A stretch of DNA of 38,231 bases from Candidatus Thorarchaeota archaeon (GTDB lineage Archaea; Asgardarchaeota; Thorarchaeia; Thorarchaeales; Thorarchaeaceae), in contig JBHIAE010000027.1 of assembly GCA_046758445.1 (NCBI GenBank), forward strand, positions 1-38,231. Reading direction: 5' to 3'. The translations under genes were made by a program, and so were the position numbers. Numbering within the stretch: the stretch's first letter is position 1; each line of letters starts with the position of its first letter. The notes beneath the pieces were generated by a model. The model made no database searches and was not told the origin of the DNA. It worked only from the letters and a program-made list of their open reading frames with translations. Shown here piece by piece: positions 7,284-17,476 of this stretch.

Positions 7284-8138
7284 CCTATGCCAAGTATATA
7301 GAAACTTCCCAGGCCAAAAGACGTGATTTGTGAATTAACGAGTTTCACCGGATGTAGCATGGACGACTCCGCCAGGTCGGGGCGTTACAAGTCCGTCGTC
7401 TACTGTGACCTCTTATTCACTTCTCAGCTTGGAAACATCACCCACTTGTGAGTGTTTCTTGGTCACATGCGATCTCCCTTATTGACAATTGATGTAAATG
7501 ACGCGAATCCTTGCGCGAAGCTATTCGGGTCAAGTAGGCTTCTTCCAGAAATATCCAAGAGCCCTGAATGGTTATGTACGACATATCAGAGATGTAGGTA
7601 TCCGTGAAAAGACGGAATGCCTTCAATGAAATCTGTTTGGAGGTGTAAGGAGAATGACTGGTCGCAGGAACACCCCGAAAGAATCGTAGGCCAATGACAT
7701 TGGCGAGATTCTGATCGTGGTTCACAGATTACTGTCGACCCTGGTCATCGAATGCAATGGCTCGTAAGATGATTAAGCGATGTGTAGGATTGATCAAAGT
7801 CTTGTCAACAGGACATGAACTGTCGTCCTAGCATGTGAATCTTGAACGAACATGAGGTCATGCAAGGAATTATGGCCTGCTCTTCTATTGTTTTGAAAAG
7901 TCATAAAGTATTCTAGGCCGGAAGAGAGTCTATGAGAGCCCTTTCCGAAGTCGCTTCAGGATTCTTGTAAAGATTCTATATATAGGAAACTGTTAGCTTG
8001 TGCAATCAAGAAGTACAGCGCCACCAGCACCAAATAGAAACTACGATGTTCGCCTCTCTGATAGTGCTTTTGCTTCGAGAAGGTGCAACACGCGCCGCCC
8101 GATGATGGTGATGCTAGGCTTCCTTCGAGGTGATTGCG

Positions 8139-10439
8139 ATGAGCAGACGAAGAGTGCTTAGGAAATCTCTATTGCTGGCTTGCTTAATGTTCTTGCTTGC
8201 CCGGATGGTCGGATTCTCAGTGAGTGTAGACAATTCCACCTCTGTTAAAATGATTGCGCAATCTCAGAATAGGAGTGGTAGTCAATACTCCCCTTCGAGC
8301 GCATGGGAATACACACCTTATCGCTATGCTGATCCTGTCTACGACACCAACACAGGCCGATTCATCAACATGACCAAGAACGTTGAGGAAAACAATGCAG
8401 TATCCGTAGACCAGATCTTCTTTCGATTGGGAACGTTGAAGATGCTCGACCCCAGCCTATCCACGCTCTCCCCTTCAGTCAAAGACTACTGGATATCTCA
8501 AGTGCTTTCATTCCAGAGAACCAGCGGAGGGTTTGGAGACTGGGTCGGTGACAGGAGTAGTGTATTGGCTACTCAGAAGGCTCTACAGATCTTGAGATGG
8601 CTCGGATATGCGGGTTTGGACACCGCTCTAGTTAGTGCATATCTTGACAGACTTCAAAATAGTATTACAGATGGGTATAACTCGCATCTTCTGGATACCG
8701 ATAGCGATGTCCATTCCACTTATCATGCTGTCAAATCATATCAACTGATCAATAGCTCTCCCTCTAATCCTTCAGCGGTATCTGATTACTTCAGGAGGGC
8801 TCAGAACCCAGATGGTGGTTTCGGTCTTCAGACGAACAGTGTCAAAGGCATTTATTGGACTTCCACGGCAACCGTGACACAGGATGCCATTCTTGGCCTG
8901 TCCGTTCTAGGTCAGAATGCATCAAATCCTTCGGCTGCATTGAGCTTTCTGCAGGGCCTCCAGCTTGTTTCGTCTGGAGGGTTTGTGAATGAAATCTCAC
9001 CAATTCTCACTACATCTGGTTCCTATTCTGCTTCTGCCTTGGAGGCAATCTACAGTCTGAACGGAACTCCAGCGAGTATCACTTCAGTTACAAACTATCT
9101 CTACTCCCTAGAAACGGTAGAGGGCGGTTTCAGACTTAAACCCTCTAGTGTAGATCGTTCGTTGATTGGTACTTACTATTGCGTCCTCGGTCTTTACATC
9201 TTGGGTCAGGCTCCAGCGAATGCGACCTCAACGTTGAACTATGTTCTGAGCCCTCCTCATTCCGATGGATATGGTGGAGCACCTGGAGAAACGCCTAGCC
9301 TAAGAGAAACTTTCGACGCAGTCTATTCTCAAGTCCTGATGGGGAATTATCCTCCTAATGTCCAAGGGATCATTGACTTCGTAGCATCTTATAGAAATCC
9401 TGATGGAGGCTATGGGCTGTCCGGATCGTATGTAGAGAGTACCCTCAGAGCAATTGAGATATACAACTTGATAGGTGCATCATTTTCCAACGTTTCTGAT
9501 ACCATTAGCTATCTCAAGAGCCTGCAGCAGCCTAATGGAGGCTTTGTGAAATACCGGGGAGAAACGATAAGCTATGTGGTTTCAACGTATCGAGCAGTCA
9601 GAGCGTTAAGTCTGCTCCAGAGTCAGCCAGAGAATCTTAATGGAGCCATTGCCTTCTTGCGGGAAGCTCAGAATGATGACGGGGGGTTCGGGGGCTATTC
9701 TGGAGACTCCAGTGACGTAACGAGTACGTATCGGGCTGTTAACGCACTTAGCATTCTGGGTGCATCGCCTTCCGATGTTACTTCCGTGATCAGCTTTCTG
9801 CGAAATAGCCAGAATCCTGATGGTGGATTTAGAAGGGGGCAATCTGACACATCTTTGCCCAAGAATGTTTCCAACATCATCTTCACCTATTCGGCCCTCA
9901 GAGCTCTTAGTATCCTGGACTCATATCCATTGGATGTAAGAGGTGCATACAACTATACTAACATGGTTCAGAATTTCGACGGTGGCTACGCAGAACATCC
10001 TGGCTTCACCTCCAACATTGCCTATACATTTGTGTCGCTTTACATACTGAGGCATTTCCACGAGTTCTCAGGGTTCAGAATAATCATTCCAAATGACTTC
10101 GATTCTGAAAGATTCCAGTATTATTTCGTTAGGATTGACATATTGGGAAGGATGGGTGGTCTTGAATACAGTATTACTAACACTAACAGTTCCAATGTTA
10201 TGATGCGAGGGACCCTCCAGTCAGAAGGCCCTGTCATACTTAATGTCGCCAACTTGGAAAACGGAACATACGTCCTTAGCGTCTATGCACGAGACCCGAC
10301 AGGGGCCGAAATCCTAACTGAAGTATCGCTCTTCATTGGATTGCGACCACCTCTCCTAGTCTATTTCGGATTGATTGCGGGGATTTCATTCCTAGCCCTA
10401 GCCTCCCATAGGTATCGTAAACGAGCCAGATCCAAGTAG
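8139..10439 (+). CDS. Secreted, C-terminally membrane-anchored prenyltransferase/squalene-cyclase (PFTB/QW) repeat protein
   Basis: About 11 Q-x-x-D-G-G-F/Y-G repeats, each followed by an S/T-Y/F-x-A helix; N-terminal MSRRRVLRK + hydrophobic signal; Ig-like C-terminal segment (NGTYVLSVYARD); TM helix + basic tail; many NxS/T sequons; GAGGTGA SD before ATG 8139. Confidence 0.85.
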   Translation: MSRRRVLRKSLLLACLMFLLARMVGFSVSVDNSTSVKMIAQSQNRSGSQYSPSSAWEYTPYRYADPVYDTNTGRFINMTKNVEENNAVSVDQIFFRLGTLKMLDPSLSTLSPSVKDYWISQVLSFQRTSGGFGDWVGDRSSVLATQKALQILRWLGYAGLDTALVSAYLDRLQNSITDGYNSHLLDTDSDVHSTYHAVKSYQLINSSPSNPSAVSDYFRRAQNPDGGFGLQTNSVKGIYWTSTATVTQDAILGLSVLGQNASNPSAALSFLQGLQLVSSGGFVNEISPILTTSGSYSASALEAIYSLNGTPASITSVTNYLYSLETVEGGFRLKPSSVDRSLIGTYYCVLGLYILGQAPANATSTLNYVLSPPHSDGYGGAPGETPSLRETFDAVYSQVLMGNYPPNVQGIIDFVASYRNPDGGYGLSGSYVESTLRAIEIYNLIGASFSNVSDTISYLKSLQQPNGGFVKYRGETISYVVSTYRAVRALSLLQSQPENLNGAIAFLREAQNDDGGFGGYSGDSSDVTSTYRAVNALSILGASPSDVTSVISFLRNSQNPDGGFRRGQSDTSLPKNVSNIIFTYSALRALSILDSYPLDVRGAYNYTNMVQNFDGGYAEHPGFTSNIAYTFVSLYILRHFHEFSGFRIIIPNDFDSERFQYYFVRIDILGRMGGLEYSITNTNSSNVMMRGTLQSEGPVILNVANLENGTYVLSVYARDPTGAEILTEVSLFIGLRPPLLVYFGLIAGISFLALASHRYRKRARSK

Positions 10440-10456
10440 AACGTGGTTGAGTGGAC

Positions 10457-13400
10457 ATGTTAGGACACAAGAAGAAAGCAACGGCGATTGCCTGGCTTTT
10501 GCTGCTCTTCTTGCCTTCTGTAATGGCCGGTTCAATGCTTAGTGTGAGCCGTGCTTATTCCTATCGTGTCACTGAACAGGATCACAATCATGATCCTGTT
10601 GAAGAGATCGGCTATCTACCTCGACATGCACGCCCTGTCAGTCGGGTCGGTCTGTCACAGTCAAAGCTCTTAGAGAATGAAACATTTTCACAGAGTGTGT
10701 TTTCATTCGTAAGAAGATCTCAAGAGACTGGACAGGACATACCCTCAATGGATATGGCTTACTACAAAGGTATGGCTCTCTTCTACCTTGACGCGTTTTC
10801 CCTTCCTGTTCCAAATGCGCTTAGACAAGACGCACTTGAGTTTGCTGCAACTTCTCGAAACAGTGATGGAGGCTATGGAAACTGGAAAGATGCAAGAAGC
10901 TCAATGGAGTCAACCTTTCAGTGCCTACAGCTTCTATTGGCTCACAACAATCTGACATCATTAGATTTGGCTGAAGTCAATAGAACTCTGGAATTCGTCC
11001 ATCAACTCAAGACACCGGAACAAGGATACTTACCCCTTTTGGATTGGGATGCTCCAGATGTTTCATCATCCTTCAGAGCGATAAGTGTCTACAACCTGCT
11101 TCAAAAGGGATTCCCTCAGCTGAATATGTCAATTGATAACTCTTCAACTGTATTCTTGGCCAATGCTTTTGCTCCGCCCATTTTTGCCAATGGAGCTTCA
11201 GGTTATGCAGAAAACGTTGGAGGGCCAGCTGAGTTGCTTGCCTCTCTAAATGCTATTCAAGTCTACCTTCTTTTGAACATAACGAATCCTCCAAACTTGG
11301 ATGCTATCGGCAAGTTTCTCAATAGCCTCGTGGCATTGAATGGGGGAGTGGCGGGCCGTCTAGGTGGATTTCCTACTACTGGGTATACGGCTTCTGCTTT
11401 GCATTTGTATCTTCTACTCAAGACTAAAACGGCTTTTGACATTGATAGCTATTTACCACCTAATTTCCTGGAAAACGCAAAGAACTACATTCTGGCAAAC
11501 AGGATTGCAGGATCAGGTTTTGCTGCATCAGAACGGGACACGACCCCAGAAGTAAGTTCCACTTTCTTTTCACTTCGTGTGTTGTACATGCTGGATTACT
11601 ATGGCTTCCTGTCTTCAATACCCGACCTGACCGGAGTATACAGTTTTATTGTGGAGGGCGTTCAGCCAACTTATGGTTTTGGAGACTACCCCGGAGACGT
11701 CCCTGACGTATCTTACTCTGCATACGCCATCCTGCTAGGGAGGATTCTTGGAAATACTAGCTGGATCAATCCAGCTGTTAAAGGATTCGTGGAGGACTCC
11801 TATCGTAGGTTGAGAGGAGGCTTTGGGTTCAGACCCTTCTCCACAGCCAGGGTGAAGTATACCTATTTCGGGATTAGAGCTCTTCGGGGTTTCGAGAGTC
11901 CTTTGGTTTCAGCACTCGACATAAGGCAATTCATTCTGAATTCTCAGAACGGTGACGGAGGGTTTGGAGAACAACCCGCCTCTAGGTTGAGTTATCTCAC
12001 TCATTCTTATTGGTCGATTGCCAGCTTAAGACTTCTGGGTGGAATTGACGAGAAGTATCTTGATTTCGATTCCGTTGTAAACTGGTTATCTTATCTGCGG
12101 AAACCAAATGGAACTTACTCTAATTTCCCCGGTCATAACTCCACACTGGCTTCAACCTACAGAGCCGTACAGGTTTGTATGATGCTGGGGCAATCTTATA
12201 CTAGAGATGACCCTCTCTACACGACTCTGATGAACTATCAACTACTTTCAGGTGGCTTCCTAAACTCACTTGACGAAGCAGCTCCCACAATGGAGGCCAC
12301 ATTCTATGGAGTTTCCATAGCTCTAATGCTCGGTCGATTGATTAACCGAACTCAGATCCGACAATTCGTCCTTTCTCTTCACAATAAAGATGGAGGTTTT
12401 GGGCTAAGACCCGGATACTCTAGTCGTGTGAAGTCCTCTTTCTACGCGATCCTCACACTTGAGCTACTAGAGTCGAGCAATGCAAATAGGTCATTGACAG
12501 ATTTCAGCGAGGACCCCTTTGATATCTATGCGCCCATTGTCAGTCCAGCTTTTATCCCTCGCATTGACACCAATAGGACCTTCCAGGGTTCCTACGTCCT
12601 AACTTCTACGATTATAGAACCGGAAAGTATCCTGGAAAGAACTTGGGTACAGGCTGAATGGACCAACGGGATTACGGGCGAAACGACACGTTTCAGATTC
12701 AATGGTTCCCCGAGCCAGTCCTATGCTAACGAATGGTCCTTCAGATTGGAAGCATTTAGAGAAGATGGGTTTCTGAGATTCAGAGTTCATGCGGTTGACG
12801 CAAACAACAACTCTGCTGCCACGTACTGGATGTACTTGAGATCACTGTCGACTCTGCCAGGTGGAGACGTATATCAAATGGATGTTTTTGGGGTCTTCCT
12901 ACCTTTGCTTTTTCCCTTCATACTCGCACTTGGTATTGTTGATGGTGCCATACAATATTCGAGAGGAAGAAGACTGGAGAAGAGTGAAGTACTGATGACG
13001 ATAAGAGATGATAAGACGGGTGGAATATTCGGTGATGAAACACGGAGCATGATTGCCCTCTTTTTAGTAATGGGTGCAATTGGTGTTTTGGCACGAATGT
13101 TTCTTCAGGATGCCATCATAGTTCTGGAGAACTCTTTGTTCCTGTTCAGATTCTTGATCGGCATGGTAGTAATATTGTTTGTGAAGTATGTAGTCGGTGT
13201 CAAGACATTAGGTCTGTTTGGTCCTGCGGTGCTGGTTATCTCCATGCTTCTGGTCGGTCCTGCATGGGGCATGGCAATCTTCCTCAATATATTCGTTCTA
13301 GGTTATGTCGTAAGATTGCTCTTGCGTCCCTTTAACTTGGCCTTAGGCTTTCGCATAGGAATCCTGATGATCTTCACTGTATCATACATAGGGCTTCTTG

Positions 13401-14674
13401 AACTGATCGGTGAGGTCTTTCTGATTCCCTCTCTTAGCGGCTCAATACTTGTCCCTATCATCATTACTCCCTGGTTCATTGACAAGTATGTTGTTGAGAT
13501 TGAACAAGAAGACCATCTTCAAGCCTTCTATCGCTTGATGGTGACTCTAGCTGTGACCTCAGTTTCGTTCCTGTTTATGAGTATTGACTCATTGGTGCAT
13601 GCCTTGGTTGTTAACCCTGAACTTTGGGTCGTTTTGACAGCCTCGACACTCTACTTTGGCCGGAATACCAAATACACCATGATTGACAAGAAGCGGTTCA
13701 GTAGATTGCTCAAGGGCGGGAAGGCCCCTCTGTCATTACAGATCCGCAATCGCAACTTCATAGCTAGATACAACTCACAGATTCTCTATCCTGTCATCAA
13801 TAAGCTCAATATGAAGGAACAGTTCGAGAAATGGAGGGTTCCGACAGCCGAGCTGCTTGCCATTGTTGAAAGCGAGAATCAACTTCCTACCATAATGAGG
13901 AGACTTGCCATAGAAGAGCAGTTCAAACATGGTTTTGTGGTCAAGCCGTCACAGAGTTTCGGCGGTAAGGGAATTCTCATTGTTAGAGCGAGAGATGGCA
14001 ATGGCAACTTCGTCGTGAGCAATGATGTCTGCAGTCCAACAGCAATTGAAAAGGAGATTCGAAGAATCCTTCAAGGTGAATATCTTACTAGTCAGACCCT
14101 CACTGACAGAGACATCGTGTTGATCGAGGAGAGAATCTCCACTCATCCTGATCTCGCGAAGATATCTACAGGTCTGCCTGATGTTCGAGTGATCATCTTC
14201 AGGGGAATTCCTGTCATGGCCATGATGAGATTGTCCACAATGGAAAGTCAAGGAAGGGCCAATTTGAAACAGGGGGCCATAGGTGCAGCAGTGAAACTCT
14301 CTAGTGGATTGGTGTATCGGGCAGAGATCAAGGGAACGCAGGTTGAAAGACATCCAGACACGAGAGAGAAGATAGTAGGCTTCGCTCTGGACAATTGGCT
14401 GGAGATTCTCTCAACTGCTTGCTTGGCTCAGAAGAGCAGTGGGCTGGGCTATGCTGGGGTTGATGTTGTAATCTGTGAGGACGGTCGTACACTTGTCCTC
14501 GAGGTAAACAAGAGACCGGGGCTAGAGATACAGAATGTTTGCCAAGATAGCCTACTTAGTAGGCTTGACATGATAGAGAAAGGGGATATTGACGCATCGG
14601 AATTCTCCGCAATAAGGGCAGCTCGATTCGCTATTGAGCTGGCTCTCGAACACTGGGAAAAGGAGGAATACTGA
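10457..14674 (+). CDS. Multidomain fusion: signal peptide + ~11 prenyltransferase-like repeats + Ig/Fn3-like + TM + 7TM_transglut-like domain + alpha-L-glutamate ligase-related (RimK-like) ATP-grasp
   Basis: Repeats (SRNSDGGYG, SQNGDGGFG, LHNKDGGFG); 7TM motifs VGVKTLGLFGP, NPELW...YFGRNTKY; ATP-grasp motifs RNRNFIARYN..LYPV, FVVKPSQSFGGKGI, GLPDVRVIIFRGIPVMAMMRL.T.ESQGRANLKQGAIG, GYAGVD, LEVNKRPGLEIQ. Confidence 0.88.
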   Translation: MLGHKKKATAIAWLLLLFLPSVMAGSMLSVSRAYSYRVTEQDHNHDPVEEIGYLPRHARPVSRVGLSQSKLLENETFSQSVFSFVRRSQETGQDIPSMDMAYYKGMALFYLDAFSLPVPNALRQDALEFAATSRNSDGGYGNWKDARSSMESTFQCLQLLLAHNNLTSLDLAEVNRTLEFVHQLKTPEQGYLPLLDWDAPDVSSSFRAISVYNLLQKGFPQLNMSIDNSSTVFLANAFAPPIFANGASGYAENVGGPAELLASLNAIQVYLLLNITNPPNLDAIGKFLNSLVALNGGVAGRLGGFPTTGYTASALHLYLLLKTKTAFDIDSYLPPNFLENAKNYILANRIAGSGFAASERDTTPEVSSTFFSLRVLYMLDYYGFLSSIPDLTGVYSFIVEGVQPTYGFGDYPGDVPDVSYSAYAILLGRILGNTSWINPAVKGFVEDSYRRLRGGFGFRPFSTARVKYTYFGIRALRGFESPLVSALDIRQFILNSQNGDGGFGEQPASRLSYLTHSYWSIASLRLLGGIDEKYLDFDSVVNWLSYLRKPNGTYSNFPGHNSTLASTYRAVQVCMMLGQSYTRDDPLYTTLMNYQLLSGGFLNSLDEAAPTMEATFYGVSIALMLGRLINRTQIRQFVLSLHNKDGGFGLRPGYSSRVKSSFYAILTLELLESSNANRSLTDFSEDPFDIYAPIVSPAFIPRIDTNRTFQGSYVLTSTIIEPESILERTWVQAEWTNGITGETTRFRFNGSPSQSYANEWSFRLEAFREDGFLRFRVHAVDANNNSAATYWMYLRSLSTLPGGDVYQMDVFGVFLPLLFPFILALGIVDGAIQYSRGRRLEKSEVLMTIRDDKTGGIFGDETRSMIALFLVMGAIGVLARMFLQDAIIVLENSLFLFRFLIGMVVILFVKYVVGVKTLGLFGPAVLVISMLLVGPAWGMAIFLNIFVLGYVVRLLLRPFNLALGFRIGILMIFTVSYIGLLELIGEVFLIPSLSGSILVPIIITPWFIDKYVVEIEQEDHLQAFYRLMVTLAVTSVSFLFMSIDSLVHALVVNPELWVVLTASTLYFGRNTKYTMIDKKRFSRLLKGGKAPLSLQIRNRNFIARYNSQILYPVINKLNMKEQFEKWRVPTAELLAIVESENQLPTIMRRLAIEEQFKHGFVVKPSQSFGGKGILIVRARDGNGNFVVSNDVCSPTAIEKEIRRILQGEYLTSQTLTDRDIVLIEERISTHPDLAKISTGLPDVRVIIFRGIPVMAMMRLSTMESQGRANLKQGAIGAAVKLSSGLVYRAEIKGTQVERHPDTREKIVGFALDNWLEILSTACLAQKSSGLGYAGVDVVICEDGRTLVLEVNKRPGLEIQNVCQDSLLSRLDMIEKGDIDASEFSAIRAARFAIELALEHWEKEEY

Positions 14675-14675
14675 G

Positions 14676-15833
14676 ATGAGCAGCAGGACCACAGTATCAA
14701 GAAAGGCATCCAGGATGACTCTCCGTTTTGCTGCTTCAGTATTAGTCTTGGCATTGATGGTCTTCGCGGTAGGAGCTGTCTACAGCCTTGAAACGCAGCA
14801 GACAGAAAGAGGGAAAGCCGATTTTCGCGTGAGTTATCATTTCTATCTCAAGAACGAAGGCCCCATAGATTTGACTTCCGTGACAGTGAGATTGGCTCTG
14901 CTGAAAGACTGGATACCAGTTCAGACTGTTGAAGACCTTGCCATCGACACGTTCCCGAATCAAACAACTACCGACATCTATGAGAATGAGTTCGTGTGGT
15001 ATGACTATAGAGATTTCAAGGTGAATCAATCGATTGATCTCTGGTTTCACGCAAATCTGACATTACCTTTTGTGGACTATGCATCAGCAGACCTTCCTAT
15101 CACCCCGTATAATACTGAACTAGACATCTACAAGCTGTATACAGCCTTTGAACCTCTTGCAGATAGTACAGACCCTAGTATAAGGAATGTGGCTCAATCT
15201 CTTGAAGTTCTCAATGACCCCCTGGGAACAGCATTCAATCTGTATAATTTCACGGCAAGTTTCCTTGACTATAGATTGATGAGCTCGACCAAAGGTGCAT
15301 CCTATGCATTGAGAAATGGAGTCGGTGATTGTGACGAGTATACTTATCTCTTTGTGGCGCTTTCGAGGTCTCTTGGCATCCCTGCAGTCGAACATACAGC
15401 TTGGTTAGCGGATTTTGCACCCGGTTTTGTGACATCAGATGAAGGTGCAGTTGCTCATGCTTATCCTATGTTCTATATTGAAGGTGTAGGACTGGTTCCC
15501 GCGGATCCAACAAGAGGGAAATCTAGTATCTTTGACAACTGGCTAAGGACCGACTACAAGAGAATAACTTTGACACGCGGTCCAGACAATCCCTACAGAC
15601 TGCTCAGATATCGATGGCTGCCCATTGAAGGACTTCCTGATCCATCTGTGTTCAGCAACTACACTATCATAATCCATGACGTGAATATCCAGTATACATC
15701 AATTCTGAGAAATATCATTCTCGTATCTCTAGTTGGAATTCCAGTTGTGTTCGGGATGGCCAACGTTCTCAATGGATATCAGTTAAGACAGCTCCAAAAG
15801 AAGAAGTTAGAAGAACTACTTTCTCCGGGATAG
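14676..15833 (+). CDS. Membrane-anchored transglutaminase-like domain protein
   Basis: GVGDCDEYTYLFVALSRSLGIPA (Cys), AHAYP (His), ADPT (Asp); N- and C-terminal hydrophobic helices; AGGAGG SD, start 1 nt after the upstream stop. Confidence 0.88.
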   Translation: MSSRTTVSRKASRMTLRFAASVLVLALMVFAVGAVYSLETQQTERGKADFRVSYHFYLKNEGPIDLTSVTVRLALLKDWIPVQTVEDLAIDTFPNQTTTDIYENEFVWYDYRDFKVNQSIDLWFHANLTLPFVDYASADLPITPYNTELDIYKLYTAFEPLADSTDPSIRNVAQSLEVLNDPLGTAFNLYNFTASFLDYRLMSSTKGASYALRNGVGDCDEYTYLFVALSRSLGIPAVEHTAWLADFAPGFVTSDEGAVAHAYPMFYIEGVGLVPADPTRGKSSIFDNWLRTDYKRITLTRGPDNPYRLLRYRWLPIEGLPDPSVFSNYTIIIHDVNIQYTSILRNIILVSLVGIPVVFGMANVLNGYQLRQLQKKKLEELLSPG

Positions 15834-17131: not shown

Positions 17132-17425
17132 TCAAGAATCAGTTGCGTTGTTGCATCGTTCGAGAGCAACAAAGAAGCCCGATGTTTCGTCACCCTCGTC
17201 CACAGAATGAACCCTGAAGTTGGTGCCATGTTCGTTCCGCATTCTGTTTGCCACATGTGCGCCAATGAACTTCTTCCTCACATCTGAGAGTCTACCCTTC
17301 CAGAGAAAGATGCTCTTGGTAGTGTCGTCAACAATGCAGTAGACGCTGTGAGTTTCTAGATTGTCCTTTGACAAATCGACCTCAATCAGGGTGCCGTCAT
17401 CCTGCATTTCAAATCCATTGGCCAT
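17132..17425 (-). CDS. Single-domain gelsolin-like protein (eukaryotic signature protein)
   Basis: LETHSVYCIVD...IFLWKGRLS.VRKKF.GA..A...VDEGDE..GF..AL matches the gelsolin-domain pattern; start refined to ATG 17425. Confidence 0.8.
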   Translation of the reverse strand: MANGFEMQDDGTLIEVDLSKDNLETHSVYCIVDDTTKSIFLWKGRLSDVRKKFIGAHVANRMRNEHGTNFRVHSVDEGDETSGFFVALERCNNATDS

Positions 17426-17476
17426 AGGGATGCTACCCCGCACAATCCATCTGCTTATGTGACATCTCGGTTAAGC

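Follow-up and report, generated by a model that had tools for sequence, protein, structure and literature searches.

The DNA analysed here (the window) comprises 38,231 nucleotides (nt) from a Candidatus Thorarchaeota archaeon, that is, positions 1 to 38,231 of contig JBHIAE010000027.1 in assembly GCA_046758445.1, a genome of 3.25 Mb in 113 contigs that is 92.7% complete. On the forward strand, at 10457..14674, lies a gene for a single protein of 1405 amino acids (aa) in which a toroid ectodomain, a membrane core and an ATP-grasp ligase follow one another in one chain. We hold with high confidence that this gene is the middle member of a three-gene operon (8139-15833), which runs from a second, type-B toroid protein through the type-A toroid/core/ATP-grasp fusion to a transglutaminase-fold protein; that the same cassette occurs in unfused form in several archaeal phyla; that the Asgard toroid has been joined to the remainder via a disordered linker; and that core and ligase are homologous to the transmembrane (TM) part of the bacterial protein RloB and to RloC, respectively.

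The fused gene recurs across independent assemblies

The open frame of the fused gene is free of stops from either a GTG at 10451 or an ATG at 10457 up to its end at 14674, which gives 1407 and 1405 aa, respectively. We favour the ATG as the start because a database twin (P0004) is 1405 aa long. Pfam assigns three families to the product: Prenyltrans (PF00432; three stretches, 139 bits, E = 3e-40), 7TM_transglut (PF14402; residues 902-1086, 72.2 bits against a cut-off of 25) and ATPgrasp_ST (PF14397; residues 1099-1377, 179 bits against a cut-off of 31.4). Among NCBIfam models, TIGR02291 ('alpha-L-glutamate ligase-like') scores 209 bits against an equivalog cut-off of 314.2, and by this measure the ligase reads as a relative rather than an equivalog of that family. 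With the RloB model NF052267 the score is 44 bits where the cut-off is 900, and the match is confined to the TM part. In public databases, proteins of this kind from metagenome-assembled genomes (MAGs) labelled Thor-, Heimdall- or 'Odin' go by the name 'sugar-transfer associated ATP-grasp domain-containing protein'.

An earlier note on this DNA, made from the letters alone, had arrived at much the same layout: one uninterrupted frame with a signal peptide, PFTB repeats, a 7TM segment and an ATP-grasp domain with intact KP...GGKG, DVR and ExN motifs. The frame is indeed stop-free over 10457-14674, the N-terminus looks like a signal peptide on reading its sequence, the three domains are the three Pfam families just named, with coordinates that were correct to within a few tens of bases, and the motifs are present and invariant across 55 homologues. 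The same note had regarded the architecture as undescribed. Our search found no paper describing either the fused architecture or the archaeal cassette; yet the protein is not unique, since its Pfam set is shared by about 28 clusters (formed at 90% identity) with lengths of 1339-1509 aa and 48-71% identity across the C-terminal 548 aa.

These clusters also bear on a more prosaic explanation, namely that the gene is an artefact of assembly or the read-through of two genes. The genome is, after all, a 113-contig draft, and a natural split form exists that breaks at the same joint (see below). However, the fused frame is found in the 28 clusters, which come from independent assemblies, and in ten other genomes of the phylum, without an internal stop. 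We therefore consider an artefact ruled out, and the misassembly that the earlier note had named as a potential refuter is not supported. A PF14402 search of 201 genomes from the phylum placed the fused gene in 11 of them, representing 7 of 59 genera; ten of these carriers have uninterrupted frames of 1364-1431 aa and the eleventh has a 584-aa frame on a short contig. The fused gene was not found in the four same-genus genomes sampled in this search, so that we regard it as a patchy accessory gene.

Predicted architecture of the fused protein

The chain opens with a likely signal peptide (10457..10528), in which KKK is followed by a hydrophobic run, with a hydropathy peak at residues 12-30, and by VMA|GS. 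The type-A toroid ectodomain that follows (10733..12520) is built from about 11 repeats of the prenyltransferase-beta type, recognised by Pfam, by a match in the PDB and by repeat spacing: 11 G-G-aromatic repeats (one of them, at ~408, found by eye) follow one another at intervals of ~47-59 aa from residue 140 to residue 648, which would be enough for two (alpha/alpha)6 barrels. It matches Rab GGTase beta (1dce_B/3pz1_B, E = 1.9e-12). The residues that make such proteins enzymes are, nonetheless, missing. At the D-x-C column, where the zinc-ligand Cys would be expected, fused toroids carry Ser and Cys is absent from every cassette toroid, and neither toroid protein of the window cassette contains a DxDD motif. 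With both sites lacking, the fused toroid most likely serves for binding or as a scaffold and not as a transferase.

Between the toroid and the membrane lies a beta-rich module (12533..12850, including the segment FRVHAVDANNN), recognised by its conservation and presumed, in line with the label 'Ig/Fn3-like' of the earlier note, to adopt an Ig-like fold. The segment (residues ~695-800) shows a mean identity of 39% among Asgard copies, a like module ends every toroid partner, and a Pfam search at E <= 10 gave nothing useful for it. It is followed by the anchor helix TM-a (residues 812-835; 12884..12955), supported by hydropathy, model and alignment, which is the counterpart of the C-terminal anchor in stand-alone toroid proteins. 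A basic, disordered linker on the predicted cytoplasmic side (12956..13036) then forms the joint of the gene fusion; in the AlphaFold2 (AF2) model its predicted local distance difference test score (pLDDT) falls below 50 at residues 846-858. Conservation among copies is as low as 21% in the anchor helix and 22% in the linker, compared with 54% in the membrane core and 60% in the ligase.

The membrane core (13037..13666) belongs to the RloB/7TM_transglut family according to Pfam, NCBIfam, alignment and model, and makes six passes after TM-a by our own count. Its invariant residues are G916, G921, F923, R968 (which is buried), P1002, P1056 and W1059, and the core is conserved like an enzyme. A juxtamembrane connector (13667..13744) with an invariant R1082-F1083 leads from there to the ligase. 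Searching with a profile of the TM domain yields 1734 representatives (at 50% identity), the majority being RloB-type proteins (~510 aa, with the TM domain at the C-terminus); among the best 150 matches listed, ~25 have the core at the N-terminus followed by the ligase and seven are toroid fusions of 1350-1430 aa.

In stand-alone core-ligase homologues a short basic N-terminus directly precedes the first core helix, which suggests that the core begins and ends in the cytoplasm. Together with the anchor helix, the fused protein would then run from outside to inside. We thus infer from sequence and model a topology with a cleaved signal peptide, glycosylated toroids and the beta module outside, TM-a passing from out to in, a six-pass core, and the ATP-grasp domain inside. 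The distribution of NxS/T sequons agrees with this arrangement and, more specifically, fits an extracellular ectodomain: all 14 fall within residues 76-786, and the last 607 residues are free of them (P = 3e-4 under an even spread).

The cytoplasmic ATP-grasp ligase itself (13745..14674; ATPgrasp_ST, TIGR02291-like) is recognised by Pfam, NCBIfam, alignment and model, and closes with W-E-K-E-E-Y. It retains the full catalytic set: K1165 with GGKG, E1226, D1244 and R1246 (DVR), N1271, D1338, and E1351 and N1353 (ExN) are invariant in the 55 homologues. A model of residues 800-1407 reaches a pLDDT of 87.4 and a predicted template modelling score (pTM) of 0.81. The best matches of its ligase part among solved folds are ArgX (3vpb; Z 16.8, root-mean-square deviation (rmsd) 3.2 over 221 aligned residues) and RimK (4iwx; Z 15.9, rmsd 3.3 over 214), followed by LysX/ArgX (5k2m; Z 15.0); in all, many ATP-grasp enzymes match at Z 12-17. 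Foldseek agrees, with RimK at E = 2e-8. Taken together, invariant residues, model and folds make the ligase look catalytically competent. RimK is the poly-alpha-L-glutamate ligase of ribosomal protein S6, while LysX and ArgX, the ligases of amino-group carrier proteins, are soluble biosynthetic enzymes that couple an amino acid to the carboxylate at the C-terminus of a protein. Note that by sequence the kinship is distant: a search against the PDB returned RimK only (E = 0.0099), and membership of the RimK family is not indicated (TIGR00768, 21.4 bits against a cut-off of 143.4), the fold and the C-terminal motif alone being held in common. Elsewhere in the genome, a 301-aa frame on another contig (C5:87299-87865) gives weak ATPgrasp_ST matches (30.5 and 19.8 bits) and probably encodes a further RimK-like ligase that has nothing to do with the cassette.

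The cassette and its history in archaea

The fused gene is closely flanked on either side, with intergenic gaps of 17 and 1 nt. Upstream lies the gene for the type-B secreted toroid protein (P0002; 8139..10439, forward strand), which encodes 766 aa from the ATG, with a GTG at 8130 as an alternative start. Its product starts with a signal peptide, continues with prenyltransferase-type repeats (Prenyltrans, 185 bits in four stretches) and a beta-rich module, and ends in an anchor helix and a basic tail; hydrophobic segments are located at residues 9-34 and 732-760. Downstream, the transglutaminase-fold protein (P0003; 14676..15833, forward strand) starts from an ATG 1 nt past the ligase stop, with GGAGG ahead of it. 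It is identified by Pfam (PF01841 core, 46.7 bits against a cut-off of 23), alignment and hydropathy, and carries anchor helices at both its N- and C-terminus. The folded domains of both partner proteins are predicted to lie outside. A Cys-His-Asp triad (GDCDEY, AHAY, DPT) is kept in five of six cassette transglutaminase copies, including those from Asgard archaea and the L005 locus.

The order toroid, (toroid-)7TM-ATP-grasp, Transglut_core is found again in a Heimdall MAG (L002), an 'Odin'-labelled MAG (L003), an Asgard-like metagenome contig (L004), L005 and a Woesearchaeota MAG (L008), as well as in a Thermoplasmatales MAG (L020) and a Micrarchaeota MAG (L021). Outside the Asgard archaea the middle gene, at ~512-620 aa, encodes the membrane core and ligase alone. 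There, and also in one Asgard lineage, an anchored protein of its own provides the toroid. Most Asgard cassettes, by contrast, have the fused toroid plus a second, diverged type-B toroid gene upstream. These type-B genes are 42-46% identical to one another, as P0002 is to the orthologues that precede the fused gene in L002 and L003, and 21% identical to type A, which is also the figure for P0002 against the toroid of the window's fused protein. Two of the cassette toroids (L008:3238-5910 and L021:1701-4508) also give faint matches to the N-terminal Ribophorin_II model (E = 2.4e-4, below cut-off), which may be due to chance.

How did the fusion come about? The split form in L004 is instructive. 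There, the toroid gene, whose product shares 40% identity with the fused toroid of the window, ends in an anchor helix and KRRRRN, and a 556-aa 7TM-ATP-grasp gene starts 21 nt later. Crucially, the position of this stop and restart coincides with the low-pLDDT, poorly conserved linker of the fused protein. Since the break point falls in the disordered, least conserved segment, we read the Asgard architecture as the product of neighbouring genes that were fused through a cytoplasmic tether. The 7TM-ATP-grasp unit also has relatives in cultured haloarchaea, namely Natronomonas sp. EA1 (L022:4177-6483) and Halorubrum kocurii JCM 14978 (L023), hosts that may lend themselves to genetics.

As for the surroundings of the window cassette, about 850 nt of non-coding DNA (7284-8130) precede it and contain a TATA-like box, TATATATA (7977..7990, forward strand), which on reading the sequence is a possible archaeal promoter. 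Scans of this gap for small open reading frames and for sigma-70-type promoters and terminators, a model that is not archaeal, yielded no candidate gene for a precursor peptide, and no tRNA or Rfam element was found in the window, 7284-8130 included. The gene downstream of the cassette is convergent. Further along (17132-17443, reverse strand) lies a 103-aa single-domain gelsolin (PF00626, E = 5.6e-5), a protein type that is a hallmark of Asgard archaea. Together with the Thor-, Heimdall- and 'Odin' labels of the close homologues of the fused protein, it assigns the window to an Asgard archaeon.

A tentative inside-out mechanism

What might such a machine do? In Pseudomonas aeruginosa, the rloABC genes encode a secreted retropepsin (RloA), an inactive transglutaminase with a 7TM domain (RloB) and an ATP-grasp protein (RloC) (Lormand et al., mBio 2025, PMC12239564). 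Deletion of rloB or rloC suppresses the defects of mutants without secreted RloA proteases (PMC12239564), which fits the idea that a product of RloBC needs to be processed outside the cytoplasm. A RloB-like gene also influences membrane-vesicle output in Shewanella (PMC12096838).

Further clues come from the company that the core-ligase unit keeps. Direct 7TM-ATP-grasp fusions of ~512-610 aa are common in archaea and bacteria. A bacterial Transglut_core-7TM-ATP-grasp fusion (P0032, 822 aa) adjoins genes for TPR and Omp85 barrel proteins, and in 7TM-ATP-grasp-TM-subtilase fusions (P0094, P0099 and L006:2467-5274; 935-951 aa) an extra helix after the ligase, at residues 593-622, puts the S8 protease outside. 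Indeed, every domain found attached to the core module is an extracytoplasmic peptide-acting enzyme or scaffold, whether transglutaminase fold, subtilase, toroid or secreted retropepsin.

Taking identity, topology and mechanism together, we put a probability of roughly 55% on our overall explanation of the system. Its mechanistic component, which we hold tentatively and would place a shade below an even bet, is that the system works from the inside out: ligation inside, hand-over across the membrane, and processing or cross-linking outside. Ligation is placed inside because that is where ATP is available. Using cytoplasmic ATP, the ligase would turn a carboxylate into an acyl phosphate and then add one or more amino acids, a reaction modelled on RimK and LysX/ArgX, its nearest structural relatives, and directed at the carboxyl groups of peptides or proteins. 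The conserved membrane core, in which the invariant Arg968 is buried, would hand the product over or present it at the outer face, where the transglutaminase-fold enzyme with its Cys-His-Asp triad would cross-link or trim it while the non-catalytic toroids bind or scaffold it. The outcome would be a modified cell envelope. The outward direction appears to agree with the extracytoplasmic partners, with the position of the subtilase, with the TPR and Omp85 neighbours and with the genetics of rlo suppression.

A number of observations weigh against this mechanism. First, a conduit role for the membrane core lacks structural backing, because the core has no convincing solved relative. A model of the membrane part by itself (residues 806-1092, pLDDT 89.1) gives RnfA (8ahx_A; Z 8.1, rmsd 3.5, 122 aligned residues) and NqrE (7xk3_E; Z 7.7) as best matches and a best Foldseek E of 0.56, nothing above the noise of helical proteins; likewise, the two-domain model of core plus ligase returned no membrane-protein match above noise. 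Note that a missing fold match is not evidence of a new fold. Second, the support that complex prediction lends through contact between the transglutaminase protein and the membrane domain is weak, with a score of 0.34 (best control 0.00). At least 92% of contacts are shared by the three runs, and the partner has a pLDDT of 82 or more; of 80 solved complexes 58 pass, as do 2 of 110 mismatched pairs, with passes that score 0.60 or less made up of just seven of the 80 solved complexes plus both passing mismatches. Third, catalysis by the transglutaminase partner is not universal, because the Woesearchaeota copy (L008:7566-8597) has Ser in place of the catalytic Cys. Fourth, the Natronomonas gene has TauE-family and Na+/H+ antiporter-family genes as neighbours, with neither toroid nor transglutaminase; being solitary, it implies that the core module can work without them. 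Fifth, the biochemistry of the rlo genes was left open (PMC12239564), and neither bacterial nor archaeal members have a known substrate, product or transport activity. Finally, RimK and LysX/ArgX act on cytoplasmic proteins, so that by analogy the likeness of the ligase to these enzymes would fit an inward role equally well.

Such an inward role could be that of a receptor-enzyme, an alternative that the earlier note had also raised. The toroids would bind an external ligand, the core would signal, and the ATP-grasp domain would tag cytoplasmic proteins or peptides, as RimK does with S6. The order of ectodomain, membrane segment and cytoplasmic enzyme is that of a receptor, and a solitary 7TM-ATP-grasp protein without outside partners exists in Natronomonas. 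On the other hand, the ectodomains attached to the core are transglutaminase folds, subtilases and toroids, never sensors of the Cache, PAS or CHASE type. The genetic partner in Pseudomonas is a secreted protease whose absence is suppressed by loss of rloB or rloC (PMC12239564), and no candidate gene for a cytoplasmic target is conserved in the cassette. We therefore regard a receptor as the weaker reading compared with the inside-out mechanism, and an unlikely one.

The ends of two of the proteins suggest a different kind of inward activity. The ligase terminates (window 14650-14671) in a near-invariant Trp and a short, often acidic tail, here E-K-E-E-Y, of which self-modification is conceivable. 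Asgard transglutaminase partners have a cytoplasmic tail that ends in the conserved motif K-L-x-x-L-L-S/N-P (window 15770-15833, with equivalents in L002-L004), and this LLSP/LLNP tail could be a docking or modification site. Imagine that the ATP-grasp domain extended one of these tails, the ...LLSP of the partner or its own W-E-K-E-E-Y, and thereby controlled assembly or turnover of the complex, with the core serving as a docking platform. Such tail-tagging would suit the action of RimK and LysX/ArgX on protein C-termini and the repeated fusion of ATPgrasp_ST to peptidases that act there (MATCAP/DUF1704, retropepsin). It would leave the strong conservation of the core and its invariant buried Arg unexplained, however, and give the extracellular enzymes no role; outside the Asgard archaea, moreover, the tails are neither uniformly acidic nor conserved. 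We judge it to be no likelier than the receptor.

Less probable still is a route via a lipid-linked glycan, in which the ligase would use an amino acid to amidate the carboxylate of a polyprenyl-linked sugar, the core would flip the lipid intermediate and the toroids would hold its isoprenoid tail outside. The Pfam name of the ligase family ('sugar-transfer associated'), the membership of the toroids in an isoprenoid-binding class of prenyltransferases and terpene cyclases, and sugar-nucleotide genes near the L004 and L005 cassettes all point in this direction. Yet conservation does not extend to those sugar genes, the conserved cassette members include neither a glycosyltransferase nor a flippase, the toroids are without zinc and DxDD sites, and the nearest folds of the ligase act on peptides. 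We think this route very unlikely.

We favour the inside-out mechanism over these rivals. It also has a bolder version, namely a secretion-coupled, non-ribosomal amino-acid polymerase in which the ATP-grasp domain would build a peptide or poly-amino-acid chain right at a membrane conduit not recognised before and the outside transglutaminase would cross-link it onto the toroid scaffolds. We consider this version doubtful. If it were true, some archaea, Asgard archaea included, would possess a covalently linked peptide surface layer, and the long-sought chemistry of the bacterial Rlo system would be revealed.

Implications

The core-ligase module emerges from this analysis as ancient and portable, able to work without peptidoglycan or a periplasm, and as one that swaps its outside partners: transglutaminases dead or live, subtilase, toroid and retropepsin. 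In Asgard archaea it is physically tied to a double toroid. The archaeal cassette thus adds the toroid as a new obligatory partner of the Rlo-type module and, at the same time, narrows its possible functions to something that all envelopes share. For Asgard biology, the cassette represents a candidate envelope-modifying machine of patchy distribution, present in ~5% of sampled genomes. From a practical point of view, single-chain constructs may make biochemistry and cryo-electron microscopy easier than they are with the split bacterial system.

Comparison with known systems

Several known systems resemble parts of the cassette. The repeats of the toroid place it in the same family as the beta subunits of Rab GGTase and FTase; the toroid of the window, however, is secreted, sequon-rich and devoid of the zinc-ligand Cys. 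RimK/RimB shares the ATP-grasp fold, the catalytic residues and the logic of a ligase paired with a peptidase, but RimK is soluble and has no membrane domain. With LysX/ArgX, which provides the best structural match (3vpb), the difference is that the window cassette has no gene for a LysW-like carrier.

Ligase and peptidase are also found paired in one chain elsewhere. ATPgrasp_ST is fused to a MATCAP/DUF1704 carboxypeptidase in a series of proteins of ~790 aa (P0033-P0049, among them P0041), some from Gracilibacteria and other Patescibacteria, to a retropepsin domain in P0127, and to both in P0036. These pairs are reminiscent of the tubulin tyrosination cycle.

PgsBCA/CapBCA shares only a concept with the present system, that of a membrane-bound, ATP-dependent amino-acid polymerase delivering its product to the outside. 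PgsB is a Mur-ligase-type enzyme, not an ATP-grasp protein. The earlier note had proposed a comparison with PgsC/CapC in particular; neither these nor other PgsBCA/CapBCA families appear among the Pfam or NCBIfam matches at E <= 0.01. A link of the pseudomurein type was also considered and rejected: the matching paper concerns Methanobacteriales and unlinked genes, which leaves an analogy at most.

Proteins of the P0032 type come closer, in that they too combine ectodomain, membrane core and ligase in one chain, with the differences that the ectodomain is a transglutaminase and the partners are those of a Gram-negative envelope.

The closest counterpart is rloABC itself. Both systems have a membrane protein of the PF14402 family and a ligase of the PF14397 family, with a transglutaminase fold outside and the ligase inside. 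They differ in that core and ligase form one polypeptide in the window, in that the fused ectodomain is a double toroid rather than a dead transglutaminase, and in that the transglutaminase-fold protein is encoded by a separate gene with Cys-His-Asp intact; the Ser-for-Cys replacement in the Woesearchaeota copy, on the other hand, parallels the 'inactive' transglutaminase of bacterial RloB. The host also differs, being an archaeon without periplasm or peptidoglycan, and no retropepsin of the RloA/RimB type (PF05618) was found in the cassette, in the 92.7%-complete genome or in seven related cassettes.

The connection between 7TM domain and ligase was reportedly defined in the amidoligase survey of Iyer et al. 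2009, the survey that PMC12239564 cites for ATP-grasp families. The earlier note had taken the fusion as Rosetta-stone evidence that 7TM_transglut and the ligase work together. The fusion does argue that its parts cooperate, but this particular partnership was already known from the rloB-rloC pair. What is new is the link of the toroid to the 7TM-ATP-grasp unit, and this link is backed by the conservation of the three-gene cassette.

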